64,000 bases of DNA from Candidatus Brocadiales bacterium (GTDB lineage Bacteria > Planctomycetota > Brocadiia > Brocadiales > Bathyanammoxibiaceae). How positions within the stretch are numbered: position 1 is the first letter of the stretch; the number at the start of each line of letters is the position of its first letter. The notes under the pieces were generated by a model. It searched no databases. It was given only the letters and a program-made list of their open reading frames with translations, and was not told the origin of the DNA. A program made the position numbers and the translations under genes. The stretch is taken from positions 7,443 to 71,442 of the forward strand of contig JBHIBD010000001.1 in assembly GCA_046758865.1 (NCBI GenBank), written 5' to 3'. Of the stretch, positions 4,415 through 58,244 are shown piece after piece.

Positions 4415-5050
4415 CTACAGCTTCTTCTCTCTGCTTTCCCATTTGCCCTTAAAAGTTATCCAGAAGGAAAGGAGGATCAATTTCAAATCGAGCAAGAACG
4501 ATTGTTTTTTAACATACAATAAGTCGTACCGAAACTTCTTCTGTCTGGGTGCGTCAGCAGGGATATAAATCTGGGCAATCCCTGTTAGTCCTGGCTGTAC
4601 ACGCACCCTTTCCTTATATCCAGGAATCGATTGGATGCTTAGATTTTGGGGGTTGCCCGCACTAACCTCAAGTTCCTCTGGCCTCAGGGCCCTGGGGCCA
4701 ACAAAGCTCATGTCCCCAATGAGGATATTCCAAAGTTGAGGGAGTTCATCCATAGCTGTAGCCCTTAAGAGTCTCCCAACTCTAGTGACTCGTGGGTCAT
4801 TTTCTTGCGCCTGAACTGGTCCTGCGTCTTTTTCTGCATTAGGAATCATAGAACGGAACTTGTAGACCTTGAAAATTTTGCCGTCTTTGCCTACCCTCTC
4901 TTGAAGATAGAAGACAGGCCCTCCGTCTGTCAGTTTTATAACTAAAGAAAACAGGGACCAAAGCGGTAAAGACCCGATAAGACCTGTAAAAGATAGAAGA
5001 ATGTCGAAGGACCTTTTTAAAAAAGGTTGTTTTTCTTCGTAAACAGGCAT
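4415..5050 (-). CDS. small monotopic phosphoglycosyl transferase (Bac_transf family, PglC/WbaP C-terminal type), initiating enzyme
   Basis: One N-terminal hydrophobic helix, then KFRSM...DELPQLWNILIGDMSFVGPRALRPEE and DLLYVKKQSFLLDLKLIL, which are hallmarks of bacterial sugar transferases. Confidence 0.9.
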   Translation of the reverse strand: MPVYEEKQPFLKRSFDILLSFTGLIGSLPLWSLFSLVIKLTDGGPVFYLQERVGKDGKIFKVYKFRSMIPNAEKDAGPVQAQENDPRVTRVGRLLRATAMDELPQLWNILIGDMSFVGPRALRPEELEVSAGNPQNLSIQSIPGYKERVRVQPGLTGIAQIYIPADAPRQKKFRYDLLYVKKQSFLLDLKLILLSFWITFKGKWESREKKL

Positions 5051-5198
5051 GGATGGTGTCTACGCGTTCAGTCTTCGGATTTTAGTTTCTCAGAAGCCTC
5101 AACCTGCGGGCGGCGCTTTATTTGCAGTTCATAATAGCAATATGTACTTAGCAAGAAACCTAAATGTGAGTAATTTCTGCGTGAGATGGTGTATTCGT

Positions 5199-6404
5199 TC
5201 AGATGAACTTATATGTCATATTGTCTTTCAGTATCACATGTTCATAAATCTGGTTGTGTGGTTGGTAAGTACAGCGGGGGCATTCCTGCTCAACCTTTAT
5301 GCTATTGAACATTTCCCAGTGTTTCTTGCTTCCCCAGAGCTTCTCAATTTCACAGGCAGAAACAATGTTTCTTGCTAATTCTAGCTTAGCATCGCCCCTT
5401 CTATCGCAACAAAGCCCAAAGGTAAAGGCATCTTTATCCTGGGATTCAGCCGTCCTGGGCATGAAGACCGCCGACATAAAAACAGCATAGCAGTTTGCAA
5501 AGTAATTCGCTGGGTTGAGCTTTTCATCAAACTTATGGGTTACACCATATATGGAAAAATTCTCGTCCTCTAACTCCCTTGCCATCTGCATCTGCTCAAC
5601 AAATATCTCTAAATCTTCTGAGGCAAAATTAACAAGCTCAGAACCCAACTTGTTCCACGGATTCGAGGCTGGCCTCAAATGGAAACCCCGACAACCGACA
5701 CTTTTCGCCAGCCTTGCAGCCTCATAGATTTCTCTAACATTCTCCGGGTGCAATAGATACTTATAGCTTACACCGTAACCCAGCCCTTCACTCGCCAGTA
5801 ATGTCTTATGGCGTTTTGAATAATTTACAAGACGAACTATATTATTGATTATCCTACTAAAGATATCTTCGGAAGCTACGCGCTTTAGCTTTTTAAAGGT
5901 CTCTGCCCTCCCGGCGTCTACGGAAACCCCAACCCACGTACATTTAGAGAGACTCTCAACAAATGAACCTATTAGTGTGCCATTGGTTACGACCCCCACC
6001 TCAATCCTATTAGAGGTGCACTTCTCAATAAAAAATCCTGTCTCTTTATTTAATAAAGGCTCTCCTCCACCTGCAATACACACAGCCTCAACTCCAGGTT
6101 CCCAAGTAGCACAGCCCCGCCATTTGGGAAGAAAGTCGGCAATCTCGCCAAGGGCCTTGTTGGACAACGCACGATTTCTTGTATCTAGAATAAACTCTGA
6201 GTTACACCATACACACCGGTTGTTGCATACGTTGATTGGGTCCACTGTCACCAGTGCCGGTTGCGGCACCCTTTTAAAGGGTCGAACCTTTCTCCAGCGG
6301 TACACCTGGGCAAGCAATTTATAACTGTTAAAAGGATTCCACCTCTTTGATGCTGCCCATTCCCGATGCTTCAGGGATTGTTGAGTCTCTTCGAGTATAT
6401 CCAT
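5199..6404 (-). CDS. radical SAM enzyme (non-B12, 401 aa), distant paralog of 47884..48951 and 52022..53107
   Basis: CX3CX2C motif in VDPINVCNNRCVWCNS. The glycine-rich IAGGGEPLL matches GEGEPLL/GEAEPLL in the other two. The C-terminus is Cys-containing (ECPRCTYQPHN). Confidence 0.8.
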   Translation of the reverse strand: MDILEETQQSLKHREWAASKRWNPFNSYKLLAQVYRWRKVRPFKRVPQPALVTVDPINVCNNRCVWCNSEFILDTRNRALSNKALGEIADFLPKWRGCATWEPGVEAVCIAGGGEPLLNKETGFFIEKCTSNRIEVGVVTNGTLIGSFVESLSKCTWVGVSVDAGRAETFKKLKRVASEDIFSRIINNIVRLVNYSKRHKTLLASEGLGYGVSYKYLLHPENVREIYEAARLAKSVGCRGFHLRPASNPWNKLGSELVNFASEDLEIFVEQMQMARELEDENFSIYGVTHKFDEKLNPANYFANCYAVFMSAVFMPRTAESQDKDAFTFGLCCDRRGDAKLELARNIVSACEIEKLWGSKKHWEMFNSIKVEQECPRCTYQPHNQIYEHVILKDNMTYKFI

Positions 6405-16283: not shown

Positions 16284-17444
16284 TTATTGTCTTGGCAAGA
16301 TTGATTTATATAGTCCCACTAACCTGGCACCAATCTTTTCCCAAGAAAACTTTTCTCGCACCAACCTTCTACCATTCTCACCCATTTCTTTACGCAATGA
16401 ATCATCTTTCAAGAGTGTCTCAATCCCTTCTGCTATCTCCATGTGGTTGAGCCTCGTCACAATACCCGCCTCATAGGAGTTTATTTCCTTATGGATGTGA
16501 ACCTGGTCAGAGACCACCACTGGTAGCCTTGATGCCATGGCCTCTGTAACGGCTAGGCCAAAGTTTTCATCGTAAGAGGAAAGGACAAAGATGTCGGCAT
16601 CCCTTAACACACTCAACTTCCCTGCACCCGTAACAAACCCCGTGAATATAGTAATATCCGACAAACCGTGCTCTCTGACCCAGGACTTTACTTTGTGCTC
16701 AAAGGATTTATCTCCACTACCGGCTACAACAAACACAAAGTCTTTATAGCGGCTCCTAAGGGATGCAAGGGCTGGAATCAGGAGGTCCAGCCCCTTTTTG
16801 GGATCAATACGGGAGAGGAAAAGGATAATCTTCTTGTCCCCTGTAAGAGGATACTTTTCTCTGAATTTACCCGAAATCGGAAGCTGAGAGTAAATGTCAT
16901 CCACACCCAGGGGGATGACGACACCTCTCGTGTTATTTCCCAGATATGCCGCTTCACCTTTCTCCCTCTGGCTGGTGAAATGCATCGCTGCTGCACCTTC
17001 CACTAAACGTCTACTTAAAAAATACAGATGCAGTTTCTTTCTGAGAGGATTCCTCCTCAAAGAAAACTGGTTAAGTGCTCCCGCTGGTCGCAGAATGTAG
17101 GGCATTTTAATTTTACCAGCATAGTAAACGGTGGGTAAAATGGCATAACTAAAGAAAGCATCGATATGCACAAGGTCGTAAGAATGTAGGTTCTTTCTCA
17201 ACCACCAAGTAAGATCCCAGGAAAGAGCATACTTGTGGAGAAAAGGACTGTGCGTGTAATGCACCGGTACCCCATCTACATCCGTTGGCCCATACGGGAC
17301 GATAGTTGAACAGTCTTCTACATATGCATCAGTGGTAAGGATTTCTGCCTCGATTCCCTGCCTTCTGAGTTCTTTACATATACCAAGGGCTGCTAAGCCA
17401 CCTGAGGTGGGGACACAAGCAGAAACAAGATAAAGGACCCTCAT
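16284..17444 (-). CDS. glycosyltransferase family 4
   Basis: SSYDENFGLAVTEAMASRLPVVVSD, the GT4 E-x7-E region. Confidence 0.85.
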   Translation of the reverse strand: MRVLYLVSACVPTSGGLAALGICKELRRQGIEAEILTTDAYVEDCSTIVPYGPTDVDGVPVHYTHSPFLHKYALSWDLTWWLRKNLHSYDLVHIDAFFSYAILPTVYYAGKIKMPYILRPAGALNQFSLRRNPLRKKLHLYFLSRRLVEGAAAMHFTSQREKGEAAYLGNNTRGVVIPLGVDDIYSQLPISGKFREKYPLTGDKKIILFLSRIDPKKGLDLLIPALASLRSRYKDFVFVVAGSGDKSFEHKVKSWVREHGLSDITIFTGFVTGAGKLSVLRDADIFVLSSYDENFGLAVTEAMASRLPVVVSDQVHIHKEINSYEAGIVTRLNHMEIAEGIETLLKDDSLRKEMGENGRRLVREKFSWEKIGARLVGLYKSILPRQ

Positions 17445-19622: not shown

Positions 19623-19807
19623 AACAGCGGAGCCCCCAATCTCTTTTTATTGCCTAGGTAAGCCGTTATTTTCATGGAAGAGGACAGAAATTTGTTTTGA
19701 ATACTCGGGAATCTTTCCCAGGGCCTGATTCTGCCAATATATTCTATCGTAGCGAAGCCCATTAAAATCCCTTTTTGCTTTAAGACCCTAATATTCCCTT
19801 ACGTAGT

Positions 19808-37073: not shown

Positions 37074-37128
37074 TTTGTGATTTCTCCTTTAGTTTGGATT
37101 TCCATTTTTTATGTGTTTATAGCGCCAA

Positions 37129-37193: not shown

Positions 37194-37237
37194 CGGGAAG
37201 ATATTGTAGTTCTATTTTTGTGCTCTTATAACACCAA

Positions 37238-37302: not shown

Positions 37303-37326
37303 TGAGAAGATGTTAGGTAGCTCAAG

Positions 37327-43589: not shown

Positions 43590-44744
43590 ATGTATGATGT
43601 CATCACCGTAGGTGGAGGCCCTTCAGGGGCTTACACCTCGTATCTACTAGCCAAAGAAGGCCTTAAGGTGCTGCTGCTGGACAAGGGCCAGCCCGGCGGG
43701 AAGTTGTGCACAGGGGTGATAAGCGAAGAGGCCTTCCAGAGCTTCTCCTTGGATAGGAGGTGTATTCTGAGGGGGATACGTTCTATTGAGTTTGTGTCTC
43801 CTTTGGGAGGGGGCTTCATATACGAGCACCCAACACCTTTTGCCCACGCAGTGGATAGAAAGGCCTTTGATTCCCTGCTTCTAGACATGGCACAGGAGGC
43901 AGGGGTATCCTTCTTGGGGGAAGCGGTGGTTACCTCCCTGGAGGTGGCAAAGGAGGGGGTAAGGGTACGATACGGAAAAAATGGCCAATTTCAAACTACC
44001 GCACAGGCCTTGGCTTTAGCCACAGGGCTAAACCGGCGTCTTTTAAGAATGGTAGGATTAAAACCTCCAGATTATTTAAACGCTGTGCAGATAGAGACTG
44101 ACTTTGGCGGCGAAGACCAGGTTAAGGTCTTTCTTGGGAATAAGATTGCCCCGGGTTCTTTTGCCTGGGTGGTACCTCTAGGAGATGGTACGGCCAAGAT
44201 GGGCATGAGCACTAGAAGGCTCATTATGCCTAACTTCAGACGGTTTCTGAGATCGCTTGGGATAAAAGACGGAATTGCTGATATAAGGTCACGGTCCATC
44301 CCTTATGGAATGGCAGCTCGAACCTACACCAATAGGACTCTGGTGATAGGTGATGCCGCCGGCCATGCAAAGACCACTACCGGAGGCGGAATATACTATG
44401 GGCTTATCGGAGCTAGTATAGCCGCCGAGGTACTCAAAGAGGCCCTCTCAAAGGGAGATTTCAGCGAGGATTACCTCCAGGGCTATGAAGAAAGGTGGAA
44501 GGAGAGGCTGGCCCCAGAGATAGAGATGGGCATGAGGCTAAGAGGCGTCTTTTCCAGCTTTGATGATGAAAGAATAAACAAATTTATACAGTTTGCCAGG
44601 AACGATGGGATAGCCACCTTGATAAACCTACAGGCCAAATTTGACTGGCAGAGGCCCTTCTTCTCCTCTCTTTTACGAAGGCTCGACGTTAAAAGACTTC
44701 TGGGCAAAAACTTCTTTAAGCTTACACAACAGTTTTTTCCATGA
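43590..44744 (+). CDS. FAD-dependent oxidoreductase, geranylgeranyl-reductase family
   Basis: YDVITVGGGPSGAYTSYLLAKEGLKVLLLDK (FAD GxGxxG) and LVIGDAAGHAKTTTGGGIYYGLIGASIAAEV. Confidence 0.75.
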   Translation: MYDVITVGGGPSGAYTSYLLAKEGLKVLLLDKGQPGGKLCTGVISEEAFQSFSLDRRCILRGIRSIEFVSPLGGGFIYEHPTPFAHAVDRKAFDSLLLDMAQEAGVSFLGEAVVTSLEVAKEGVRVRYGKNGQFQTTAQALALATGLNRRLLRMVGLKPPDYLNAVQIETDFGGEDQVKVFLGNKIAPGSFAWVVPLGDGTAKMGMSTRRLIMPNFRRFLRSLGIKDGIADIRSRSIPYGMAARTYTNRTLVIGDAAGHAKTTTGGGIYYGLIGASIAAEVLKEALSKGDFSEDYLQGYEERWKERLAPEIEMGMRLRGVFSSFDDERINKFIQFARNDGIATLINLQAKFDWQRPFFSSLLRRLDVKRLLGKNFFKLTQQFFP

Positions 44745-47309: not shown

Positions 47310-47891
47310 ATGCAATTAGACCTTAAAAATTATCTTGACCAGCTTGAAAATACTTTATTAGAAATTCAGGTAACAAATTCTGATAATGCTAATATAGATT
47401 TGATTAATGGCATCGAGGAAGTTACAAAAATAATATCTGCTCAATCGGAGAAAGGCAACAAAGTTATAATGATTGGAAATGGCGGTAGCTCATCAATCGC
47501 AAGCCACATAACAGTCGATTTATGGAAAAACGGAGGAGTGAGGGCGATTACTTTTGGTGACCCAGCATTACTTACCTGTGTGAGTAATGACTTGGGTTAT
47601 GAGTGTGTCTTTGAAAAACCTATAAGGATGTTTGGTGATGCAGGGGATGTTCTTATTGCCATAAGCAGTTCTGGAAGATCAGAGAATATTCTAAATGGGG
47701 TTAGTGCAGCGGAGAAAAGATTGTGTAAAGTTATTACGATGTCTGGATTTGAACCAGATAATCCACTTCGCTCAGCTGGAGAGATAAACTTTTATGTCCC
47801 GTCCAATTCCTATGGATATGTGGAGATAGCCCATTTAGTTCTTTGTCATTATGTTGTGGATATAATAATAAACAAGAATTCACATGGATAG
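47310..47891 (+). CDS. gmhA: SIS-domain sedoheptulose-7-phosphate isomerase (GmhA-like)
   Basis: MIGNGGSSSIASHITVDL and LIAISSSGRSENIL. 193 aa. Confidence 0.8.
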   Translation: MQLDLKNYLDQLENTLLEIQVTNSDNANIDLINGIEEVTKIISAQSEKGNKVIMIGNGGSSSIASHITVDLWKNGGVRAITFGDPALLTCVSNDLGYECVFEKPIRMFGDAGDVLIAISSSGRSENILNGVSAAEKRLCKVITMSGFEPDNPLRSAGEINFYVPSNSYGYVEIAHLVLCHYVVDIIINKNSHG

Positions 47892-48951
47892 ATTCAGAAT
47901 AGATAGTCATAAGCTAATTTACCATGTGGGCAGGGTAAATGATTGGCTTGCAGGAATACCTGTCTATCCAATCTATACTGAGATAGCGACTTCAGGTGCA
48001 TGTAACCACCGATGTGCTTACTGTGCGCTTGACTATATGGGGTATCAGCAAAGGTTCCTGGACAAAAAGGTATTGATGGACAGGCTCTCTGAAATGGCGT
48101 CTCTTGGATTAAAGAGTGTTATGTATGCGGGGGAGGGTGAACCGCTTCTGCACAAGGATATTGTTGAGATAGTCAATCACACAAAGAAGGTCGGTATTGA
48201 TGTAGCCGTAACCACGAATGGGGTGCTGTTAAAGAAAGGTTTTGTTGACTCTGCGCTCAGTAATATTGCATGGATAAAGGTGAGCATAAATGGAGCAACA
48301 AAAGGAACCTATGCAAAGATTCACAGAGCAAGCCCTGATGATTTTGACAGGGTGATGGAAAACATGTCTTATGCAGCAAGGTTGAGAGATGAGAAGGGTT
48401 ATGACTGCGTTCTTGGTGTGCAGCTAATCCTCTTGCCAGAAAACTGCCCCGAGGTGACCCTTCTAGCACAAAAGGCCAAGGATATAGGCATGGATTATTT
48501 AGTTGTGAAGCCTTATTCACAGCATCCACTGAGTAAAACAACAAAGTATAAGGATATAAAATACAGTAAGTATCTTCATTTAGCAGACAGCCTAAATGGT
48601 CTTAACGATAGAAAGTTCAGCGTAATATTCCGCATTAACACAATGAAAAAGTGGGATGAAGGTATACGCAATTATAGACACTGCTATGCCCTTCCCTTCT
48701 GGTCATACATCGATGCTGGGGGCAATGTGTGGGGGTGTAGCGCTTATCTCTCCGACGAGCGTTTTCGATATGGCAACATTTATGAGAATACATTCAAGGA
48801 GATTTGGGAGGGCAAAAAAAGGATTCAGTCAGTTCGTTGGGCAGATGGGGAACTTGATACAAATCAGTGTAGGGTAAACTGCAGGATGGACGAAGTAAAC
48901 AAATATTTATGGGAATTAAAGCACCCCCCTGAACACGTAAATTTTATCTAG
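47884..48951 (+). CDS. radical SAM enzyme (non-B12), paralog 1 (355 aa)
   Basis: SGACNHRCAYC (CX3CX2C), YAGEGEPLL, a Cys-rich C-terminal part, and the tail WELKHPPEHVNFI. Confidence 0.85.
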   Translation: MDRFRIDSHKLIYHVGRVNDWLAGIPVYPIYTEIATSGACNHRCAYCALDYMGYQQRFLDKKVLMDRLSEMASLGLKSVMYAGEGEPLLHKDIVEIVNHTKKVGIDVAVTTNGVLLKKGFVDSALSNIAWIKVSINGATKGTYAKIHRASPDDFDRVMENMSYAARLRDEKGYDCVLGVQLILLPENCPEVTLLAQKAKDIGMDYLVVKPYSQHPLSKTTKYKDIKYSKYLHLADSLNGLNDRKFSVIFRINTMKKWDEGIRNYRHCYALPFWSYIDAGGNVWGCSAYLSDERFRYGNIYENTFKEIWEGKKRIQSVRWADGELDTNQCRVNCRMDEVNKYLWELKHPPEHVNFI

Positions 48952-51173: not shown

Positions 51174-52032
51174 AAAGGTTTTACTACTCGGCTCTACCGG
51201 CAAGATGGGGATGGCATTAAGAGAGGTCTTTGAGGACGGCTATACCGTTATCGGAAAAAACACCAGGGACTTTGACGCCCTCCGGCCGGAAAGCATTCGG
51301 AATCTGGTAGAGGAAAATAGACCGGACATGGTCATAAATACCGTCGCATTCTTAGGTATAGACCCGTGTGAAAGAGAGCCCGAAAAGGCCCTTAGGCTGA
51401 ATACACTTTATCCGAGAATGCTGGCAGAACTCTCAAACGAGAAAAGGTTTTTACTTATAAACTTTAGTACGGATGCCGTCTTTGACGATGGGGCGAGGGG
51501 GTTTTATACCGAAACCGACCGCCCGAGACCATTAAATTTGTATGGGTTTACAAAACACGGAGGGGATTGTTTTGTACAAACGATTTCAAAAAATTATTAT
51601 GTATTCAGACTCTCTGTCATATTTGGAAAGACTACCAAGAACACCCAGTTTGTAGAGAAGATGTTGCAAAAGGTGTGTGAGGGCCAGAAAGTCTTAAGGG
51701 TTGCAGACGACATTGTTTCTTCCCCCAGCTACAGTGTTGACATTGCCAAAGAAGTAAGGCGACTTACAGAGGCTTCATCAGAGTTCGGGCTTTACCATAT
51801 AGCGAATGAAGGGATGGCCACTCTATACGATTTAATGAATGAAATCGTCAAAAACCTCAATCTTGATGTCGAGGTGGAAAGGGCTTCCTACAAGGACTTC
51901 CCTTATTTAGGGAGAAAGAATACATTTACACCAATCAAATCAGAAAAAGTAGCCCCCCTGCGGCCATGGAGGGAGGCTGTTAAAGAGTATTGTGACGAAA
52001 AATTGAGAGGAGAAGTAACCCTTGCCAGATAA
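51127..52032 (+). CDS. RmlD-like NAD(P)H-dependent 4-keto-sugar reductase (RmlD_sub_bind family)
   Basis: KKVLLLGSTGKMG and YGFTKHGGD (YxxxK). The real start is probably the GTG (VAKKVLLLG) or ATG (MGMAL) 35-75 nt inside the track ORF. Confidence 0.75.
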   Translation: MPVLEKLLRRPWRVAKKVLLLGSTGKMGMALREVFEDGYTVIGKNTRDFDALRPESIRNLVEENRPDMVINTVAFLGIDPCEREPEKALRLNTLYPRMLAELSNEKRFLLINFSTDAVFDDGARGFYTETDRPRPLNLYGFTKHGGDCFVQTISKNYYVFRLSVIFGKTTKNTQFVEKMLQKVCEGQKVLRVADDIVSSPSYSVDIAKEVRRLTEASSEFGLYHIANEGMATLYDLMNEIVKNLNLDVEVERASYKDFPYLGRKNTFTPIKSEKVAPLRPWREAVKEYCDEKLRGEVTLAR

Positions 52033-53107
52033 ATACATAATGAATGGTCACAAGCTCTATTGGCACCTGGATAGAGTAATGGACTGGTTAAATGGGGAAA
52101 GGGTGGCGCCCATACATATTGATGTTGGTCTAAGTAAAGGATGCAATATCAGGTGCCAGTATTGCTTTGGTGTTATACAAGGCAACTTTTATAGAAAAGG
52201 TTCAGAGGTTTACTTCCCCCGCAAACCTTTATTGAGATATTTGAAAGAGGCAGGAAAAATAGGGGTGCGGTCTATGGCATTCGTTGGGGAGGCGGAACCA
52301 CTCTTGAATCCCTATGTCTATGAGGCAATCGCAGAAGGCAAGAGGGCTGGTGTTGATATTGCACTGGGGACGAACGGGATATTATTTGACACCGGAAAGA
52401 GGGGAGAAGAGGCGTTAGAACTTCTAAGCTGGATAAGGTTTAATATCAGTGCGGCTTCGGATGAGGCCTACAGAAGAATTCATGCCAGTAAGGAGTTCTC
52501 AACGGTTGTTGAGAAGATAAAGTTTTGCGTGGATTTGAAACGTCGAAAGGGCCTGAATGCCACAATCGGCCTCCAAATGGTTCTAACTCCAGCTAATGTT
52601 GACCAGGCCGTCCCCCTGGCCAAACTGGGAAGACAGCTGGGGGTAGACTACTGTGTTATAAAACAGTGCAGTGATACGGTTGAGAATGCTCTTGGGATAT
52701 ACGGTAGACTTCAGGAATACGACAATTTTGCAGACGTTCTCCAAGAGGCTGAAGGTATAAGCTCGAATGGTTACAACGTAATAGTAAAATGGGGAAAGAT
52801 TACAAACAAAGGAGAGAGGAGTTACGACCAGTGTATCGGTGTCCCGCTTCTGTTATATTCAAGCGGCGATGGAAGGTTGTACCCGTGTGGAGCATTTTTC
52901 GACTTCAAAGAGGAAGAATATAGAATGGGGGACCTTGTAAAACAATCTTTTAAAGAAATCTTTGAGAGTGACAGATACTGGGAGGTTGTGGAAAAGGTCA
53001 AGAGAATAGATGTTCACAAAGAGTGCTATTCAAACTGCAGGACGCATTGTATAAACAAATTTCTCTGGCAATTGACTCATCCACCGGAACACGTCAATTT
53101 TGTTTAG
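52022..53107 (+). CDS. radical SAM enzyme (non-B12), paralog 2 (361 aa)
   Basis: SKGCNIRCQYC (CX3CX2C), FVGEAEPLL, and the tail WQLTHPPEHVNFV. The N-terminus GHKLYWHLDRVMDWLNG parallels SHKLIYHVGRVNDWLAG of paralog 1. Confidence 0.85.
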   Translation: MPDKYIMNGHKLYWHLDRVMDWLNGERVAPIHIDVGLSKGCNIRCQYCFGVIQGNFYRKGSEVYFPRKPLLRYLKEAGKIGVRSMAFVGEAEPLLNPYVYEAIAEGKRAGVDIALGTNGILFDTGKRGEEALELLSWIRFNISAASDEAYRRIHASKEFSTVVEKIKFCVDLKRRKGLNATIGLQMVLTPANVDQAVPLAKLGRQLGVDYCVIKQCSDTVENALGIYGRLQEYDNFADVLQEAEGISSNGYNVIVKWGKITNKGERSYDQCIGVPLLLYSSGDGRLYPCGAFFDFKEEEYRMGDLVKQSFKEIFESDRYWEVVEKVKRIDVHKECYSNCRTHCINKFLWQLTHPPEHVNFV

Positions 53108-53112
53108 GCAAA

Positions 53113-53895
53113 ATGCAACCAACGGATAATAACAAAATCGATCTAACGGTTGTAATGCCAGCACTTAACGAGGGGGAAAATATCCTGGCTGCTGTTAACA
53201 ATACCTTGAGGGCCTTTGAAGATTTTAGCATTAATGGCGAGATTATTGTGATTAATGATGGGAGTACCGATGGGACAGAGGATGTAGTAAAGGATATAAT
53301 AAAAAAAGATAACCGTGTCAGGTTAATCAGGCATGACACCCCTAAAGGCATAGGCACATCGTTTTGGAATGGGGTCGATGCCGCGGATGGAGATATAGTG
53401 ACCTGGATCCCCGGCGATAATGAAAACGACCCGTGGGAAATTTTCCGTTATTACAAGTTACTCGAACAGGTAGATGTTGTTGTCCCCTTTGTCTATAATA
53501 GAGAAGTACGGCCACTCTTCAGGAATGCACTCTCATTTGTTTACCGCTTCATTGTCAACACCACCTTCTTGGTAAATTTTAATTATACAAACGGAACAGT
53601 CCTCTACCGTAGATCCATCTTAAAAGAACTGGATTATAGGAGTGAGGGCTTCTTCTTTCAAACCGACATTTTGATAAGAACCGTAAAAAAGGGCTATCTC
53701 TTTGCTGAAGTCCCCTATAGGCTTGGCTTGAGAAAAGAAGGGGTGTCTAATGCGGTATCCTTTCCTTCCCTGTTGCAAGTTATAAAGGGCTACCTGCGCC
53801 TAATGAAAGATCAGTATTTTGACAAAGACAGAGAGAGTAAACCGCATTTTTCGGATGATTCCTTAACAACAACCAGACGGCAAATTAAGCAATGA
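53113..53895 (+). CDS. GT2 polyprenol-phosphate sugar synthase-like transferase (Dpm1/GtrB/ArnC-like), start moved to the internal ATG
   Basis: LTVVMPALNEGENI, VINDGSTDGT and IPGDNENDP. The ATG at 53113 lies just after the stop of the upstream gene. Confidence 0.8.
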   Translation: MQPTDNNKIDLTVVMPALNEGENILAAVNNTLRAFEDFSINGEIIVINDGSTDGTEDVVKDIIKKDNRVRLIRHDTPKGIGTSFWNGVDAADGDIVTWIPGDNENDPWEIFRYYKLLEQVDVVVPFVYNREVRPLFRNALSFVYRFIVNTTFLVNFNYTNGTVLYRRSILKELDYRSEGFFFQTDILIRTVKKGYLFAEVPYRLGLRKEGVSNAVSFPSLLQVIKGYLRLMKDQYFDKDRESKPHFSDDSLTTTRRQIKQ

Positions 53896-53923: not shown

Positions 53924-54451
53924 TTGGTCATGAGGGTTCTATTTTGGGGCTCAGCCATTTTTTGCGCATCTTTCTTTTTACATCTGGTTATCTGGAAAGT
54001 ACGTCTGCCCAAAAGACAGTCAAAGGCTCTGTTCCAAATCTTTTTTGGAGTCTTAGTTGCAAGTATTTCTATTCTATGGGGCACATCGGCATTTCTTGCG
54101 AACCGTGAGTCTTCTGCTCCGGGAAGTCATTTAGAATACCTGCACATTTGCCTGTTTTTTACTTCACTTACACTAGCTTACATACTTACTTACGTTGCCG
54201 TTGAGGTGGACAGCCCTTCCCTCGTAATGGTAATGAGCATTGCCATGGCCGGTTCAGAAGGGTTAGATGAGAAACGATTCAACCAGAGAATGACTGACGA
54301 CCTGTTGATAAAACCAAGAATAAGAGACCTCGTTCATGATGAGCTAATCTATATGGAAGGAAACAAATATAAGCTAACTTCAAAAGGATTTCTGGTTGTA
54401 CGCATATTTAGCTTATATCGTAGATTGCTAAATGCAGAAATTGGTGGTTGA
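53924..54451 (+). CDS. small membrane protein (about 3-4 TM) with winged-helix-like C-terminal domain, paralog 1
   Basis: Hydrophobic N-terminal half, then C-terminal LIKPRIRDLVHDELIYMEGNKYKLTSKGFLVV. Confidence 0.6.
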   Translation: MVMRVLFWGSAIFCASFFLHLVIWKVRLPKRQSKALFQIFFGVLVASISILWGTSAFLANRESSAPGSHLEYLHICLFFTSLTLAYILTYVAVEVDSPSLVMVMSIAMAGSEGLDEKRFNQRMTDDLLIKPRIRDLVHDELIYMEGNKYKLTSKGFLVVRIFSLYRRLLNAEIGG

Positions 54452-54986
54452 GTTTCTTATGCCTTATAGCCTTTTGCATGTTCTAAACCCAATTTTAGGT
54501 CTAATTATTAATGTACTGATGCAGGTTGTCAGTTTCAGGTATATTCCCAGGTTGGGATTATTAAAGTCGATAATTTTAGGTTTTGCTACGGGTCTTACTG
54601 TCGTTTTGACACTTGAACTGTGTGTTTTCTCCACGCAGTCAACATCTACAGATGATTTTGTGCCTATTTTTATTGTCAACTTTATAATGTATTCTTCACT
54701 GGGATATTGTTATTTTCATTTCGCAAATCTTGGGGAGACAGCCCGCCGCATCAGGATATTGAGAGAATTATATGATTCAAAAGAGGGATTATCAATGCAG
54801 GAAATTCTGCAAAGATATAACGCCAGAAAAATTGTTGAAGTAAGAATAAATAGGCTTATTAACAACGGACAAATTATATACAAAAGTGGCAGATATTATA
54901 TTGGAAACCCCGTCATGCTGATAATAGCGAAGATTGTAGTAATGATGAAGCTAATCATTCTTGGGAAAAGAAGCGAATTTGATTGA
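54432..54986 (+). CDS. small membrane protein (about 3 TM) with winged-helix-like C-terminal domain, paralog 2
   Basis: RRIRILRELYDSKEGLSMQEILQRYNARKIVEVRINRLINNGQIIYKSGRYYIG. An alternative start is MPYSLL at 54459. Confidence 0.6.
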   Translation: MQKLVVEFLMPYSLLHVLNPILGLIINVLMQVVSFRYIPRLGLLKSIILGFATGLTVVLTLELCVFSTQSTSTDDFVPIFIVNFIMYSSLGYCYFHFANLGETARRIRILRELYDSKEGLSMQEILQRYNARKIVEVRINRLINNGQIIYKSGRYYIGNPVMLIIAKIVVMMKLIILGKRSEFD

Positions 54987-55298: not shown

Positions 55299-56813
55299 AT
55301 GTATGATTTACTCCTAATCTCTCCACGAAACACACAGCTCGGACGTTTTAAGAGGTTTGTGCCGAGAAGTGTGCCTATTGGAATAGGCATCTTGGCCGGG
55401 TTTCTTAGAGGGAAGGGTATTTCCGCCAAGATACTTGACCAGGAGTTGACAGATATAAGTACGGAAACATTGCGGAGCTGCCTAGCGCAATGCAAAAAAC
55501 CTTGGATCGTTGGCATTAGCGTCATGACAGCGAATGTTGCCAGTGGATATCACATAGCTAAATTGGTGAAGTCTGTTAGTAAAGAAGCAGTTGTCGTATT
55601 CGGGGGCATTCACGCCACAGTAATGCCAGATGAGATTCTTCTGTCGGGTTGCGTTGACTTTGTTGTTCAAGGGGAGGCGGAATATACACTTTTGGAACTA
55701 ATCCGTCAGATTAAGGGTGGTAGAATTCAACGAGATACGCTTGAAAACATCAGTTACGTGGAAGACGGACAAATCATTTACACAAAGCCCTCAACAAAGA
55801 CGGTAGATGTAAATGAGGTTCCCATGTTTCCTTATGACATGTTTGACCCATCAAAATATAACCTTGGTTTCATCCTGACATCCAGGGGATGCCCGTTTGA
55901 TTGTATCTTTTGCAGTCAGAAGGCCATTACGAAGAGGGTTTATAGGTACGTTTCGTCAGAAAGAGTAGTCGAAGAGCTTGATTACATAATAAATGAGATG
56001 CACCAACCAAACATTACCTTTTTTGATGATTATTTTACCGGGAATAAAAAAAGGGTATTTGAGCTGTGCAACATGATTCAAGAAAGAGGGCTGCACAAAA
56101 AGGCCTCTTTTGGAGTCCAAACCCGTGGCGATAGCATTGACAAGGAACTTATGATAGCTATGAAAGCGGCTAACTTTGACAGTCTGATGTTCGGTGTCGA
56201 AACTGCTTCGGAAGATTTGATGAAGTTAATTAATAAGAATGAAACTGTCCAGGAAAATATCGATGCAATAAGATTAGCCAAGGAGATTGGTTTTACAGTA
56301 GAAGCTACATTCATCTACGGGTTTCCGACCGAGACCTTCAAGGACAGACTTGCAGCCCTCTCTCTTGCAGTGAGTATTGGGATAGACAGGGCCAGGTTTA
56401 ATAATGCCACACCGTACCCTGGCACACAAATGTATAAAATGGTTAGGGACAAGATTAATTTCGCACCTCAGTGGGTGAACTTTAGCTCTGCCGGTGCAGT
56501 TACAGCAGGTATTAGGAAGAAATACCCTCTTCCATATATTCCGGAAGGCTGCACAGAGAATGAACTTGAAGGAAGTGTTCTTTTGGCAAATCTTTTGTTT
56601 TATCTAAATCTCGTCAACTTAAAAAAACTTTTCAACCCCGGACAGAGAGGCAGTGGTAAATGGTTTGAAGTATCTAAGAATGACCTTCTATCACCAAGCG
56701 CGCTATTTGGACTATTGATACTGGGGGGAACAGTTTTATTAAGAACTCTTTATTATCTACTTTCGTGCGGCAATTGCCGCAGATTTTTCCTCAAGGGTCT
56801 CAGGGTAACGTAA
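55299..56813 (+). CDS. B12-binding-domain radical SAM enzyme
   Basis: TSRGCPFDCIFCSQ (CX3CX2C) after a B12-binding-like N-domain (LLLISPRN...PIGIGILAGFL). Confidence 0.85.
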   Translation: MYDLLLISPRNTQLGRFKRFVPRSVPIGIGILAGFLRGKGISAKILDQELTDISTETLRSCLAQCKKPWIVGISVMTANVASGYHIAKLVKSVSKEAVVVFGGIHATVMPDEILLSGCVDFVVQGEAEYTLLELIRQIKGGRIQRDTLENISYVEDGQIIYTKPSTKTVDVNEVPMFPYDMFDPSKYNLGFILTSRGCPFDCIFCSQKAITKRVYRYVSSERVVEELDYIINEMHQPNITFFDDYFTGNKKRVFELCNMIQERGLHKKASFGVQTRGDSIDKELMIAMKAANFDSLMFGVETASEDLMKLINKNETVQENIDAIRLAKEIGFTVEATFIYGFPTETFKDRLAALSLAVSIGIDRARFNNATPYPGTQMYKMVRDKINFAPQWVNFSSAGAVTAGIRKKYPLPYIPEGCTENELEGSVLLANLLFYLNLVNLKKLFNPGQRGSGKWFEVSKNDLLSPSALFGLLILGGTVLLRTLYYLLSCGNCRRFFLKGLRVT

Positions 56814-56846
56814 GACCTCTCATAGAAATCCGATGCGAGGTTTTGT

Positions 56847-58244
56847 TTGACTTCTAACATGGACGCAAGTGGGTTCGGTAAGAGTAGCCTTATCCTGACT
56901 GCTGTGCTGGTGGCGGCATTTACTCTAAGAGTACTTGTTGGACTTAGTCTTTACTCGGGTAATATGCCATTGTTCAAAGACTTTCAGGGCAGTTTTTGGG
57001 ATAGCGGGTATACCGCTTACGGTGTGCTAGCCATAAACGTTGTCGAAGGCAGGGGATTTCGTTTGCAGCACGGAGGTAAAAATGGCGTTTATTTCATGGG
57101 AGAGACGAGGGCTGAACGGATGCCCTTATATCCCTTATTCCTGTCAGTGTTATATGTTGGATTCGGTAAGAGCACCACGGCTCCAGTACTCGCTCAATCC
57201 ATTATAGGAACATTGACCGTTTTAATTACCTTTTTGATAGGACGGCAGCTTTTCAATGAGAAGGTAGGAATAGCAGCCTCTTCGTTGACAGCAATTTATC
57301 CCTATTATGTTGTCCATGACACAGCCCTCCAAGAAACGAGCCTTCTCACGTTGCTGACAGGTGTCAGCGTTCTATGCCTTATAAAATGTATCCGGTACAA
57401 TTCATTGCGCTACTATGTCCTAGCTGGCGTTTCCCTGGGAATTGGATCCCTCTGCAAAAATATTCTACTAGGTTTTGTACCTTTTGCAGTCTTTTGGATT
57501 CTCTTAAATCCCATAAAAGACAAGACTAGAAAGATTTCAATCCTGTTACTCAGTTTTGCCATAGTAATGTCTCCATGGGTAATTCGCAACACACTTGTTC
57601 TCGGTAAACCTATTATTGGTACCACCCAGACCGGCGGTGTTTTGTGGCAGGGGAACAATCCCTTCGTTTTATCTTACTACCCGTGGAAAAGTATCGATAA
57701 CAGTACAGGGAAGGCATTGGAGGCCCTCACAACAAAAGATAAAAAAGAGTTGCTTGGCCTGGATGAGTTAGGAAAACAGCGCTGGTACAGGCAAAAGGCG
57801 GTTAAGTTTATGAGAGAAAACCCAGTGCTTACCATAAAGGCTGCGTTTATCAAGGCCTTTGCCGGCATGGGTTGGATTCTTTCACCACAAAAAGATAGGC
57901 CAATTTTAAACTTTATCTACACAGCATCTTATCTCCCTTTGCTTATATTTGGAATTGCTGGTGCCATCCTTACCAGGAAGACCTGGAGAGAGATTTCCAT
58001 CATCTATTTTTTATTTGTTCCTTTTCTGCTGATAACGATGCTCTTCTTTGCTCATACCTCAAGCCGGGTGTATTTAGACATATACCTTATGGTTTTAGCT
58101 GCTTTCACGTTGGTGAAGGTTGGAGAATGGCTGTGGCTTAACTTGACTCAGACACCGTTACGGGCAAGTACGAAAACCGCCCCCCCAGCTCAAAACACGA
58201 ATTTTACTACAAAAAGAATTTTATCGCAAGAGAATAATTTATGA
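56847..58244 (+). CDS. GT-C fold polytopic glycosyltransferase (ArnT/PMT_2-like)
   Basis: 465 aa with more than 10 TM segments, TTG start and a loop-rich N-terminal third as in family-39/83 enzymes. Assignment is by architecture and context. Confidence 0.6.
   Translation: MTSNMDASGFGKSSLILTAVLVAAFTLRVLVGLSLYSGNMPLFKDFQGSFWDSGYTAYGVLAINVVEGRGFRLQHGGKNGVYFMGETRAERMPLYPLFLSVLYVGFGKSTTAPVLAQSIIGTLTVLITFLIGRQLFNEKVGIAASSLTAIYPYYVVHDTALQETSLLTLLTGVSVLCLIKCIRYNSLRYYVLAGVSLGIGSLCKNILLGFVPFAVFWILLNPIKDKTRKISILLLSFAIVMSPWVIRNTLVLGKPIIGTTQTGGVLWQGNNPFVLSYYPWKSIDNSTGKALEALTTKDKKELLGLDELGKQRWYRQKAVKFMRENPVLTIKAAFIKAFAGMGWILSPQKDRPILNFIYTASYLPLLIFGIAGAILTRKTWREISIIYFLFVPFLLITMLFFAHTSSRVYLDIYLMVLAAFTLVKVGEWLWLNLTQTPLRASTKTAPPAQNTNFTTKRILSQENNL

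Follow-up and report, generated by a model that had tools for sequence, protein, structure and literature searches.

Between about 4.4 and 62.5 kb of the window, by which we mean the whole 64,000-nucleotide stretch of DNA analysed here, an uncultured Candidatus Brocadiales bacterium carries a surface-glycan locus of 58 kb that includes six radical SAM genes. On balance we favour reading it as a single large locus whose six radical SAM enzymes probably tailor nucleotide-activated or lipid-linked sugars, in a repeat-unit arm, a deoxyhexose module and a conserved cassette with its own membrane proteins. It appears to be a mosaic in which a Wzx/Wzy repeat-unit arm with Wza/Wzc-type export is combined with two candidate Arn/Gtr-like modules, each of which reads as a GT2 polyprenyl-phosphate sugar synthase plus a GT-C transferase supplied by a radical SAM-containing nucleotide-sugar pathway. 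The GT2/GT-C modules may serve different acceptors. A preliminary description of this DNA had predicted one polysaccharide with several radical modifications, which in view of the mosaic is probably too simple.

The six radical SAM genes

All six genes have a PF04055 match above the Pfam cutoff and a CxxxCxxC motif. Three also encode a B12-binding domain, PF02310 (B12a, 17459–18916; B12b, 28349–29800; B12c, 55299–56813), two a SPASM domain, PF13186 (SP1, 47884–48951; SP2, 52022–53107), and one the radical SAM core alone (rSAM1, 5199–6404), so that the three B12 and three non-B12 enzymes are where the preliminary description had placed them. None of the six proteins reaches the cutoff of a named NCBIfam family, and they are therefore not housekeeping enzymes; the housekeeping assignment that the preliminary description had named as a refutation does not appear in the profile search. 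We infer that they represent widespread, uncharacterised sugar-tailoring families, whose chemistry is predicted. What is established is which genes are present, their motifs, their synteny and how the families are distributed.

The radical SAM genes run in the same direction as the glycan genes that they overlap or nearly touch, with overlaps of 8 nt (SIS isomerase/SP1) and 11 nt (RmlD-like gene/SP2) and gaps of 14 nt (B12a–GT4), 33 nt (B12c–PMT_2) and 40 nt (rSAM1–GT4), and relatives of five of the six have glycan-gene surroundings in other phyla. This agrees with the earlier view that they are part of the glycan locus; co-expression with their neighbours is suggested by gene spacing only. 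The claim that the locus is exceptionally dense in such genes does not stand, since related Planctomycetota and Omnitrophota loci have 7 or 5 in 21 kb. A manual count over 406.5 kb of related loci gives 41 additional radical SAM genes (1.0 per 10 kb, with up to 7 in 21 kb), and the density here, 0.78 per 10 kb, is ordinary among them and not exceptional for the class. Loci of a similar kind with an equal or higher number recur in several anaerobic phyla.

B12a (minus strand; PF02310 and PF04055) has a GT4 gene directly downstream (16284..17444, minus; PF00534, 132.6 bits). The B12a reading frame starts with ATA behind a perfect AAAGGAGG, and 9 codons before it there is an in-frame stop. Translation from the first canonical start, a TTG at 18862, would cost 18 residues, and no such product is on record. 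That all six genes are intact, as first described, is therefore uncertain for B12a, which may be decaying. It is 31% identical to B12b, and a metagenome scan returned no close relative. A remnant at 19462..19625 (minus; tblastn, 63–65% identity in two frames, with visible stops) is a decayed duplicate of the first ~54 residues of B12a. Two B12-type remnants had been claimed; with the six window proteins and 240 homologues as queries, this is the only radical SAM remnant detectable. The Pfam-less ORFs at 53924–54986 were rejected as remnants and encode conserved membrane proteins.

The right edge of the locus is formed by a mannose-1-phosphate guanylyltransferase gene (61357..62454, plus; PF00483 and PF22640), with a two-component system downstream. 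At the island borders there are tRNA genes and integrase fragments, GC content is a mosaic of 38–51%, and two paralogous 163-aa CarboxypepD_reg proteins, small and secreted, are encoded on either side of the plus arm.

A recombination-prone glycan island in a radical SAM-rich anaerobe genome might have gathered unrelated or decaying radical SAM genes that share no function. The border elements and GC mosaic would fit such a history, as would the remnant, the start-less gene and two B12b-family contexts that are not clearly glycan-related. We nevertheless regard it as very improbable: six in about 52 genes is an enrichment with P = 6e-4 at a background rate of 2% and 5e-3 at 3%, both generous assumptions, reading frames overlap glycan genes, the synteny of SP1 and SP2 is kept across at least eight lineages, and both the B12b family and rSAM1 show neighbour enrichment.

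Repeat-unit arm and deoxyhexose module

The minus-strand arm, assigned by Pfam except where noted, starts with an initiating polyprenyl-phosphate phosphoglycosyl transferase of the small Bac_transf type (4415..5050; PF02397, 207 bits; TIGR03025, 246 bits, below the cutoff of 295.55) and rSAM1 (5199..6404; PF04055), which has CNNRCVWC at residue 60 and a Cys-rich C-terminus. There follow a GT4 (6445–7671), a UDP-sugar dehydrogenase (7628–9022), a carbamoyltransferase (9040–10791), two SDRs (10938–12766), a DegT aminotransferase with its catalytic Lys (12816–13931), a GT2 (13968–14936), SAM methyltransferases at 14945–15655 and 15625–16272 (both from their sequences) and at 19808–20545, a Wzy-like polymerase (20925–22463; partial TIGR04370 match and ~12 hydrophobic segments), a Wzx flippase (22515–23948) and a glycosyltransferase (23951–24967). 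A GT4 (32485–33708), a fourth methyltransferase (33705–34436) and another GT4 (34423–35526) lie further along the same strand. The four methyltransferases, the carbamoyltransferase and the aminotransferase of the preliminary description are thus all present, as is its 3-dehydrase (29987–31219).

The divergent plus-strand arm encodes a Wza-type OPX protein (37327–38424), a Wzz/GNVR co-polymerase (38700–40187), a tyrosine autokinase ATPase (40168–40947; TIGR01007 for the block, 160 bits, above cutoff) and a Wzy_C-domain protein (41368–42819), all assigned by Pfam, and a geranylgeranyl-reductase family flavoprotein (43590..44744; TIGR02032, 193.5 bits, cutoff 158.8). The divergent intergenic region contains a tandem repeat of a ~109-bp unit (37106..37314; 78% identity by self-blastn), each unit with the palindrome TGTCAAG-A6-CTTGACA, -35-like hexamers on both strands and promoter-like matches; matches in the promoter and terminator scans are at chance level.

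The rSAM1 family is 53–84% identical across phyla. Its relatives have glycan-gene neighbours in all three distant contexts, one directly adjoining a UDP-sugar dehydrogenase, and BlsE is the sole PDB match (E = 0.006). All substrates and reactions proposed here, like the Arn/Gtr-like route, are predictions. The initiating transferase, the GT4 and GT2 enzymes and the candidate flippase and polymerase would form a Wzx/Wzy-dependent repeat-unit arm, with Wza/Wzz/tyrosine-kinase export supplied by the divergent arm. rSAM1, two genes from the UDP-sugar dehydrogenase, and B12a, beside a GT4 and methyltransferases, would each tailor a repeat-unit sugar.

B12b (28349..29800; Pfam) lies in a minus-strand deoxyhexose module. 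GDP-mannose 4,6-dehydratase (31374..32384; PF16363, 439 bits) is encoded beside a PMP-dependent NDP-4-keto-6-deoxyhexose 3-dehydrase of the E1/ColD type (29987..31219), whose best PDB matches are E1 (3bcx, E = 3e-52) and ColD and which has His in place of Lys, aligned with E1 His220, and an E1-type Cys-rich insert. Downstream of B12b are an SDR epimerase/reductase (27361..28452; PF01370, 210 bits) and a GT2 fused to a PMT_2 GT-C membrane domain (25019..27364; PF00535, PF13231 and hydrophobic segments). The GT2 part is AglJ/Dol-P-hexose-transferase-like, at 97 bits against TIGR04182 (AglJ), below the cutoff of 325.

A Ca. Brocadiales MAG has an annotated protein of 483 aa that is identical to B12b, and members of the family are found widely across Omnitrophota, CPR bacteria, Elusimicrobiota and Nanoarchaeota. 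In 20 of 42 loci the immediate neighbour of the B12b-family gene is a GT2 or GT-C gene, compared to ~7% of distant genes; by Pfam, 128 neighbours include 27 GT2, 14 PMT_2, 13 methyltransferases, 11 radical SAM proteins and 8 SDRs. The weak contexts are loci L002 and L003, with housekeeping neighbours, and L004 and L005, where a weak GT2 alone is adjacent. We propose that Gmd dehydrates GDP-mannose and that the dehydrase then takes off the 3-hydroxyl; B12b would act on the resulting intermediate, most likely by C-methylation, and the SDR would reduce the product. The fusion protein would load the sugar on polyprenyl phosphate and then transfer it outside the cytoplasm.

The SP1 cassette and its membrane module

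The hallmark of the plus-strand cassette is SP1 (47884..48951; Pfam), a 355-aa radical SAM protein with a reduced SPASM/twitch domain. Before it come an SDR (44741–45736), a nucleotidyltransferase–PfkB kinase with the HldE domains reversed (45762–47297) and a GmhA-like SIS isomerase (47310–47891), a block assigned by Pfam and by partial NCBIfam matches below cutoff and syntenic in other phyla. After it come a NUDIX hydrolase (48974–49417), a split transketolase-like ThDP enzyme (49435–50265 and 50262–51173) and an RmlD-like reductase (51127–52032), a block assigned by Pfam and partial NCBIfam matches. The conserved cassette consists of the SDR, the nucleotidyltransferase-kinase, the SIS isomerase, SP1, a second SPASM radical SAM enzyme and, in many cases, a split transketolase, and recurs in Brocadiales, Omnitrophota, Nitrospirota, Elusimicrobiota and the cultured Desulfobacter latus. 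SP1 orthologues (56–78% identity) occur in eight or more lineages: Brocadia, Anammoxibacter, Nitrospirota, Omnitrophota, Elusimicrobiota, Nitrospinota, Lentisphaeria and Desulfobacter latus. The neighbours kept beside them include SDR, nucleotidyltransferase-kinase, SIS, transketolase, SP2, GT2b, the 175- and 184-aa membrane proteins, a B12-type radical SAM enzyme and PMT_2, and locus L031 repeats the full gene order of the window, NUDIX–transketolase–RmlD included. The transketolase pair is missing from Elusimicrobiales versions. Next to the cassette in Desulfobacter latus are genes for a 1247-aa flagellin and a Maf-like protein, a setting that makes it recognisable as a portable sugar-synthesis unit. 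A literature search of incomplete coverage found no published description of the cassette, in line with the earlier statement that this system had not been described as a unit.

The SP1 family is 66–84% identical across more than 120 clusters, with invariant Cys at 40/44/47 and 267/285/329/333. Its AF2 model (pLDDT 86) has DesII as best fold match. SP1 has further matches to BlsE, BtrN, viperin and MoaA, whose substrates are sugars or nucleotides; by fold, the peptide-modifying SPASM enzymes SuiB, SkfB and anSME fit nearly as well as DesII. SP1 and SP2 could be protein or peptide maturases whose target, for cross-linking or oxidation, is not a sugar but a secreted locus protein or an S-layer protein. 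The SPASM domain, Foldseek matches to SuiB, SkfB, CteB-type enzymes and anSME (E = 1e-11 to 1e-13) and the two small secreted CarboxypepD_reg proteins, as possible targets, speak for this. However, in nearly every locus the neighbours of SP1 are SIS, kinase-nucleotidyltransferase, SDR and transketolase genes and no precursor peptide, the CarboxypepD_reg genes are not recovered in most related loci, and SP1, whose best sequence match is BlsE and best fold match DesII, retains four auxiliary Cys only, as do single-cluster sugar-acting enzymes such as BtrN. We therefore consider a maturase role quite unlikely and a sugar substrate the better reading.

SP2 (52022..53107, plus; Pfam) is 31% identical to SP1 and present in 14 of the 23 SP1 loci that span at least 9 kb, in most cases adjacent to a homologue of GT2b (53023..53895, plus; PF00535), a protein of the polyprenyl-phosphate sugar synthase class whose top PDB matches are ArnC, Dol-P-Man synthase and GtrB. 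Next are the two conserved membrane proteins of 175 and 184 aa (53924..54986, plus; hydrophobic segments), weakly paralogous to each other and with no Pfam or NCBIfam match; copies 39–66% identical lie downstream of GT2b in L016, L017, L021 and L027. B12c (55299..56813, plus; Pfam) has a C-terminal hydrophobic segment at residues 462–490, and B12-type genes occupy its position in L021 and L027. It is followed by a PMT_2 (GT-C fold) membrane glycosyltransferase (56847..58244, plus; PF13231, 60 bits) with multiple hydrophobic segments.

In the proposed pathway, a ketose phosphate, possibly from the transketolase-like enzyme, would be isomerised by the SIS protein and phosphorylated and nucleotidylated by the reversed HldE-like enzyme, and the nucleotide sugar would be remodelled by the SDR, SP1, the RmlD-like reductase and SP2. 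GT2b would load it on polyprenyl phosphate, the 175- and 184-aa proteins and a membrane-tethered B12c would work at the membrane, and the PMT_2 GT-C would attach the sugar to an acceptor, for example a polysaccharide, LPS or an S-layer protein.

The B12-type enzymes, perhaps with others, might act not on the sugar but on its lipid carrier, or on some other isoprenoid or membrane lipid, for example by methylating or cyclising a polyprenol that the geranylgeranyl-reductase homologue would saturate. The presence of that gene in the locus, the hydrophobic segment of B12c, the association of the B12b family mainly with GT2 and GT-C, users of lipid carriers, and best partial NCBIfam matches to HpnJ, HpnR and the lipid-biosynthesis B12 radical SAM family TIGR04072 are consistent with this, and radical SAM-linked lipid chemistry is, according to a review, reportedly known in anammox bacteria. 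These matches are, however, far below cutoff (HpnJ, 223 vs 577; ladderane-type family, 146 vs 360), and the substrate of HpnJ itself is probably a sugar moiety. Pfam finds no fatty-acid or isoprenoid synthesis genes within the window, and B12b sits between the 3-dehydrase and the SDR of a GDP-sugar pathway. A lipid substrate is thus unlikely.

Comparison with known systems

DesII, BlsE and BtrN are radical SAM enzymes of antibiotic pathways, where their substrates are TDP-sugars, nucleoside-sugars and aminocyclitols. Like them, SP1 combines a radical SAM core with a C-terminal auxiliary-cluster domain and is encoded among sugar-nucleotide enzymes; its best match by sequence among solved structures is BlsE and by fold DesII, and rSAM1 matches BlsE only. 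In contrast, SP1 is just 15–19% identical to these enzymes, scores far below the TIGR04426 and TIGR04466 cutoffs and occurs in surface-glycan loci, not antibiotic clusters. To our knowledge, none of its partners (SIS isomerase, kinase-nucleotidyltransferase, transketolase) accompanies DesII, BlsE or BtrN.

With their N-terminal B12-binding Rossmann domain and radical SAM core, B12a, B12b and B12c resemble class B (cobalamin-dependent) enzymes such as AprD4, GenK/Fom3-type methyltransferases, OxsB, TokK, CysS and HpnJ. Their closest solved relatives are AprD4, OxsB, CysS and TokK, and their best profiles HpnJ and BchE, but they reach no curated family cutoff, and the B12b family typically adjoins GT2 and PMT_2 genes, an adjacency that we know of for no characterised class B enzyme.

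As in the CDP-ascarylose (E1/E3) and GDP-colitose (ColD) pathways, Gmd, a DegT-family His-for-Lys enzyme and an SDR reductase are encoded in a row. The dehydrase has the E1-type Cys cluster yet adjoins a GDP-mannose dehydratase, which we take to be a ColD-type context. Unlike in ascarylose synthesis, an E3 reductase to go with the E1-type dehydrase was not found here, and unlike in 3,6-dideoxyhexose pathways a B12-radical SAM gene is inserted between dehydrase and reductase.

The SIS, PfkB kinase, nucleotidyltransferase and SDR proteins of the cassette are homologous to GmhA, HldE and HldD of the ADP/GDP-heptose pathway (GmhA, HldE or HddA/HddC, GmhB, HldD). However, they score well below the equivalog cutoffs (those of GmhA and HldE for the SIS and nucleotidyltransferase-kinase proteins), the HldE domain order is reversed, GmhB phosphatase is absent, and the cassette includes as integral parts a radical SAM enzyme and, in most cases, a transketolase-like pair. 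Its sugar would not need to be a heptose. In anammox Kuenenia, heptose chains, methylated HexNAc and dimethyl-deoxyhexose are constituents of the S-layer glycans, and ADP-heptose as well as GDP-heptose has been detected (bioRxiv 10.1101/2020.12.03.409086). The transketolase-like pair may do no more than provide sedoheptulose-7-phosphate.

YerE (yersiniose) and E1-alpha/beta-like pairs (avilamycin and aldgamycin sugars) add two-carbon branches to NDP-keto sugars in a ThDP-dependent reaction. The split transketolase/E1-type ThDP enzyme here likewise lies inside a sugar-nucleotide pathway beside SDRs, but the Elusimicrobiales versions of the cassette do without it.

Finally, the Arn (ArnC/ArnE-F/ArnT) and Gtr (GtrB/GtrA/GtrC) systems, which decorate acceptors with lipid-linked monosaccharides, have a counterpart in GT2b, with ArnC, Dol-P-Man synthase and GtrB as closest solved relatives, and the PMT_2 GT-C encoded with it. 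A dedicated sugar-nucleotide pathway lies upstream as in the arn operon, and the GT2–PMT_2 fusion repeats the same logic in a second copy. That the sugar passes to polyprenyl phosphate is predicted only by remote homology (E ~1e-9). In contrast to Arn and Gtr, no GtrA or ArnE/F-type flippase is recognisable here, two conserved membrane proteins occupy its position, and the module includes radical SAM enzymes.

The radical SAM genes and the layout of the locus

The six radical SAM (rSAM) genes recognized in the preliminary description all score above the PF04055 cutoff (44.8–97.2 bits versus 29.5) and all contain a CxxxCxxC motif (CNNRCVWC, CPFQCNFC, CPSQCVYC, CNHRCAYC, CNIRCQYC and CPFDCIFC). 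Three proteins combine the rSAM domain with a B12-binding domain, namely B12a (17459–18916, minus strand), B12b (28349–29800, minus strand) and B12c (55299–56813, plus strand). SP1 (47884–48951, plus strand) and SP2 (52022–53107, plus strand) carry a SPASM domain, with PF13186 above cutoff in both, and rSAM1 (5199–6404, minus strand) consists of the rSAM core only. PF02310 matches an N-terminal Rossmann domain in B12a, B12b (scanned as 28349–29854) and B12c with 68–78 bits against a cutoff of 32.1, and this predicted cobalamin-binding domain makes the three proteins putative class B enzymes. Some class B members, for example AprD4 and OxsB, are not methyltransferases.

A profile scan of the six proteins against NCBIfam, the housekeeping check that the preliminary description had proposed, gave no match above any curated cutoff, which rules out a housekeeping assignment. 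The cutoffs for HpnJ, BchE, TIGR04072 (ladderane-type), TIGR04295, viperin, MoaA, BlsE, DesII, AprD4 and tungsten-cofactor maturase were not reached in NCBIfam; the best ratios were 223.5 versus 577.6 for HpnJ, 146.5 versus 360 for TIGR04072, 90 versus 380 for W_rSAM_matur and 59 versus 180 for viperin. Relative to the score needed, the matches to HpnJ and BchE reach ~40% for the B12 types and those to the tungsten-cofactor maturase ~20% for the SPASM types, and rSAM1 scores ~50 bits against viperin and MoaA. The accompanying genes claimed earlier (four SAM methyltransferases, a carbamoyltransferase, an aminotransferase and a 3-dehydrase) are likewise all present. The DegT aminotransferase (DegT1, 12816–13931, minus strand) keeps the catalytic Lys, and a second DegT protein has His there.

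The locus comprises ~52 genes in two divergent arms, running from 37073 to 4415 on the minus strand and from 37327 to 62454 on the plus strand. The minus arm contains Wzx/Wzy components (an initiating transferase, a flippase, a candidate polymerase and at least six glycosyltransferases), and the plus arm opens with Wza, a Wzz/GNVR protein, a tyrosine autokinase and a Wzy_C protein. Matches to PF02397, PF13440, PF04932, PF02563 with SLBB and PF02706 with PF13807, together with TIGR01007 above cutoff, identify a Wzx/Wzy system with OPX and PCP proteins; the match to TIGR04370 is partial (35.2 bits versus a cutoff of 40). An XrtA/PEP-CTERM system was rejected, as the window contains no exosortase and the relevant models score 123.5 versus 180, 113.7 versus 278.85 and 128.3 versus 230.65. 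Proteins identical to B12b and SP1 are annotated in NCBI under a Candidatus Brocadiales bacterium MAG, where they lie on a 94-kb contig, and Logan assemblies of SRR29324601 contain parts of the locus.

All six rSAM genes lie in same-strand runs with glycan genes. The gaps are small (14 nt from a GT4 gene to B12a, 33 nt from B12c to the PMT_2 gene and 40 nt from rSAM1 to a GT4 gene), and the SIS gene overlaps SP1 by 8 nt and the RmlD-like gene overlaps SP2 by 11 nt. Consensus promoter and terminator scans for operon boundaries gave counts near shuffle expectation, so we infer co-transcription of the rSAM and glycan genes from gene spacing only. At the gathering threshold, Rfam found two tRNAs in the window and no riboswitch or other RNA element that might regulate the B12 or SAM enzymes. 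The intergenic region between the arms is filled by a tandem repeat of ~109 bp (37106–37314, 78% identity), each unit of which has the palindrome TGTCAAG-AAAAAA-CTTGACA, giving TTGACA –35-like hexamers on both strands; it is possible that a bidirectional promoter or operator has been duplicated here.

At the left edge of the locus, tRNA-Glu and tRNA-Lys genes are flanked by two phage-integrase fragments (498–1088, 3802–3978 and 4052–4339), and the GC content varies along the locus from 38 to 51%, which suggests island-type integration or a recombination hotspot. The right edge is formed by a mannose-1-phosphate guanylyltransferase (ManC) gene, followed by a two-component system. Two paralogous 163-aa proteins with 46% identity, encoded at 36582–37073 (minus strand) and 58364–58855 (plus strand), each combine a signal peptide and a CarboxypepD_reg domain with a hydrophobic C-terminal tail rich in Gly and Ala. 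They match no NCBIfam or sorting-signal model and could be glycosylation targets or anchors. Between the second of these genes and ManC lies a gene for a 694-aa protein (59072–61156) with an N-terminal hydrophobic segment and only a faint FlgO-domain match.

Counted by homology plus motif, the window has six rSAM genes in 64 kb, and the locus is enriched in such genes relative to classical O-antigen loci. The exceptional density claimed for it does not hold within its class, where related loci match or exceed the value of the window. Seven rSAM genes lie in 21 kb of an uncultured Planctomycetota contig (L030, 500–15474), and an Omnitrophota locus has five in 21 kb (L007, 10001–21080), a count that precomputed Pfam confirms independently; two of these five are B12 types placed back to back. 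Two further loci have four in 11 kb (L008) and four in 13 kb (L018). A hand sum over the 27 loci with SP1 (406.5 kb) gives 41 additional rSAM genes, which equals 1.0 per 10 kb, versus 0.78 per 10 kb in the window; the rSAM density of the locus is average for its own class. Set against an assumed genomic background of 2%, the enrichment has P = 6e-4, and we regard a fortuitous clustering of these genes as extremely unlikely.

The SP1 cassette

SP1, a 355-aa protein, is encoded in a cassette with an SDR (44741–45736), an HldE-like NT-kinase (45762–47297), a SIS protein (47310–47891), a split transketolase, an RmlD-like reductase and SP2. Its family is tightly conserved, the best 120 clusters being nearly all ~355 aa with 66–84% identity. 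A scan with one genome per species revealed orthologues with 56–78% identity in Brocadia, Anammoxibacter, Wunengus and other Planctomycetota, and further in Nitrospirota, Omnitrophota, Elusimicrobiota, Nitrospinota, Lentisphaeria, a Deltaproteobacteria MAG and the cultured Desulfobacter latus AcRS2. The conserved neighbours are the SDR, a GmhA-like SIS isomerase and the 510-aa NT-kinase, in which a cytidylyltransferase-like domain precedes a PfkB kinase, the reverse of the HldE domain order. A split transketolase or an E1-type ThDP enzyme is usually present as well, and often also SP2, a homologue of the GT2 protein encoded at 53023–53895 on the plus strand (GT2b), two family-less membrane proteins, B12-type rSAM genes and PMT_2 GT-C proteins. 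In one Omnitrophota locus (L031), the gene order of the window is preserved in full from the SDR through GT2b. Overlapping the start of the cassette by 4 nt is a gene for a geranylgeranyl-reductase family flavoprotein (43590–44744; TIGR02032 above the NCBIfam cutoff), which hints that saturation of a polyprenyl carrier lipid may be involved.

In D. latus AcRS2, a cultured sulfate reducer, a SIS-SDR-SP1-transketolase-SPASM cassette is found at 984–14014 of NZ_JACADJ010000021.1. It directly adjoins genes for a 1247-aa flagellin with a hexapeptide-repeat insert and a 1071-aa Maf-like protein (MptE-like plus TPR), and this setting is probably a flagellin glycosylation island. Because it is found beside a flagellin and a Maf-type protein, the cassette behaves as a portable sugar-synthesis unit that is coupled to different transferases.

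The predicted structure of SP1 (pLDDT 86) has DesII as its top structural match, and BlsE, BtrN, viperin and MoaA match too. Peptide-modifying SPASM enzymes score almost as well as DesII; the conserved partners of SP1 resemble sugar-phosphate enzymes, and we consider it very unlikely that the SPASM enzymes act on protein or peptide. SP1 has four conserved C-terminal cysteines (267, 285, 329 and 333, in 20 sequences), versus the seven-Cys SPASM motif for two auxiliary clusters, which would fit a single auxiliary cluster. We favour a mechanism in which SP1 would abstract hydrogen from a nucleotide-activated sugar made by the neighbouring enzymes, the outcome being oxidation, deoxygenation or epimerization. 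The transketolase pair may provide sedoheptulose-7-phosphate or, alternatively, extend a keto-sugar by a two-carbon branch, by analogy with the known ThDP-dependent branching of such sugars.

Relatives of rSAM1 and of the B12-type enzymes

In each of the three distant contexts examined, relatives of rSAM1 (53–84% identity) have glycan genes around them. In a Geobacter MAG the neighbours encode methyltransferases, a UDP-sugar dehydrogenase and a further SPASM enzyme; in the second context the gene is between GT2 genes and next to GT4 genes; and in the third it adjoins a B12-rSAM gene, and genes for PMT_2 and GT2 proteins are close by. The presence of a UDP-sugar dehydrogenase partner in two genomes, with BlsE as the sole PDB match, suggests that rSAM1 acts on a UDP-uronic acid.

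Since the first two contexts examined for the B12b family were unconvincing as glycan settings, 80 metagenome loci were gathered with a family alignment. Of these, 42 were non-redundant and had three or more neighbours; a gene for a GT2 or GT-C protein lies immediately next to the family member in 20 of the 42 and within two genes in 25, compared to 7% (18/258) of the genes located farther off than three positions. In an unbiased census of neighbours by Pfam (n = 128), GT2 leads with 27, followed by PMT_2 (14), SAM methyltransferases (13), rSAM (11) and NDP-sugar SDRs (8). An action of the B12 enzymes on a lipid rather than a sugar seems to us quite unlikely.

B12a has no close relatives in the JGI metagenome scan and is judged only by its position and 31% identity to B12b. 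Its reading frame opens with ATA, which a perfect AAAGGAGG precedes by 6 nt, and has an in-frame stop nine codons upstream. Between this stop and the TTG at 18862 there is no ATG, GTG or TTG (18862–18949). The TTG is thus the first canonical start, and its use would cost the first strand of the Rossmann domain; such a shorter product is not on record. Either a non-canonical start is in use or the start codon may have been damaged recently.

Where the preliminary description had seen remnants of two further B12-type genes, we find only one, at 19462–19625. Here the N-terminal ~54 residues of the adjacent B12a recur in a decayed copy that is split over two frames. A tblastn search with word size 2 and E up to 20, extended with 240 homologues as queries, returned this segment and no second remnant. 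The segment lies in an 892-bp non-coding gap (18917–19807) in an otherwise tightly packed arm, and looks like a scar left by an earlier duplication or recombination event. The ORFs at 53924–54986 (plus strand) were rejected as rSAM remnants because they are conserved, if Pfam-less, membrane proteins. These two weak paralogues (unk175 and unk184, 175 and 184 aa) each have some three hydrophobic segments near the N terminus, and their soluble part resembles a winged helix. They belong to no Pfam or NCBIfam family. In loci of Nitrospirota, Nitrospinota and Elusimicrobia they are conserved, directly following the GT2b homologue.

Putative decoration modules and their likeness to known pathways

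The glycan genes around the rSAM enzymes include two modules whose logic differs from that of the Wzx/Wzy pathway. Module 1 consists of Gmd, an E1-type 3-dehydrase, B12b, an SDR and a GT2–PMT_2 GT-C fusion. The best solved relative of the His-type DegT protein (29987–31219) is E1, the CDP-4-keto-6-deoxyglucose 3-dehydrase (E = 3e-52), and a Cys-rich insert is common to both. FYIAHNIQ of the 3-dehydrase aligns with FYPAHHIT of E1; the H220K mutant 3bb8 shows K there, and DegT1 has Lys at the same position. An E3-type partner is required for E1-type enzymes, and Pfam found no ferredoxin-NADP-reductase-like gene in the window. Most plausibly, B12b would C-methylate a 3,6-dideoxy-4-keto intermediate. 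The fusion is a single 781-aa protein (25019–27364) in which an AglJ/Dol-P-hexose-transferase-like GT2 precedes a PMT_2 GT-C membrane domain; from its domain composition, it would be a candidate lipid-sugar synthase joined in one polypeptide to the transferase that uses its product.

Module 2 consists of the SP1 cassette, GT2b, the two family-less membrane proteins, B12c, whose C-terminal part contains a hydrophobic segment, and a PMT_2 GT-C protein (56847–58244, plus strand). Three ArnC entries and Dol-P-Man synthase make up the top four PDB matches of GT2b, and GtrB comes next, all at E ~1e-9 to 6e-7, which denotes remote homology; against NCBIfam ArnC it scores 43 bits versus a cutoff of 529. 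PF13231 (PMT_2) is above cutoff in both 56847–58244 and 25019–27364, which identifies both as GT-C proteins, and no sequence match to a solved structure was found. On balance, sequence comparison leads us to favour slightly the view that both modules match the Arn/Gtr scheme, in which a dedicated nucleotide sugar would be loaded on polyprenyl phosphate, flipped, and then transferred by the GT-C protein outside the cytoplasm.

The six proteins are a real, glycan-linked set of uncharacterized rSAM enzymes. A joint reading of these data, which we offer tentatively and consider rather unlikely in its entirety, is that the cassette (SDR, reversed HldE-like protein, SIS, SP1 and usually the transketolase pair and SP2) makes a novel NDP-sugar by radical chemistry, perhaps a higher-carbon, branched or carbocyclic, heptose-derived one. 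At least eight anaerobe lineages would put this product on differing surface structures, via polyprenyl phosphate and GT-C proteins in Brocadiales and Omnitrophota and via a Maf-type protein onto flagellin in D. latus, and B12-rSAM enzymes with GT2/GT-C proteins would represent a general, undescribed tailoring of lipid-linked sugars in uncultivated bacteria, including CPR.

Sugar tailoring by radical SAM enzymes is well studied in antibiotic pathways and almost unknown in bacterial surface glycans. No description of such a locus or cassette turned up in the literature searched, which lacked most subscription journals, so this absence is weak evidence. The conserved cassette and the link of B12-rSAM to GT2/GT-C genes are new and can be tested, also in a cultured organism. 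The window provides three testable handles: SP1 itself, a 355-aa enzyme whose sharp conservation and constant sugar-phosphate partners extend across phyla; the statistical link of one B12-rSAM family with GT2/GT-C lipid-carrier glycosylation; and D. latus AcRS2 as a cultured host with the cassette in a probable flagellin glycosylation island. The cassette product, once solved, would put a name on thousands of proteins now annotated just as “radical SAM protein”.

Knowing this product could also shed light on the unusual sugars that mass spectrometry has revealed on anammox S-layers, structures of importance for the formation of granules and biofilms in wastewater treatment. The S-layer glycans are reported to contain heptose chains, methylated HexNAc and dimethyl-deoxyhexose, and both ADP- and GDP-heptose were detected (bioRxiv 10.1101/2020.12.03.409086), so the products proposed for the locus would not be out of place. 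The same paper makes no mention of radical SAM genes. The cassette differs from the NDP-heptose pathway in that the SIS matches GmhA at 91–100 bits versus 209–265, below equivalog level, the HldE domains score 97 versus 345 and 107 versus 181, and HldD scores 123 versus 275, all below cutoff. Equivalog matches to the four steps were thus not obtained, and no HAD phosphatase for the GmhB step is present. Unlike Arn/Gtr, the locus has no recognizable small flippase, as no GtrA or ArnE/F-type match to Pfam or NCBIfam was found among the ORFs scanned; what its modules share with those systems is the logic of a GT2 paired with a GT-C protein.
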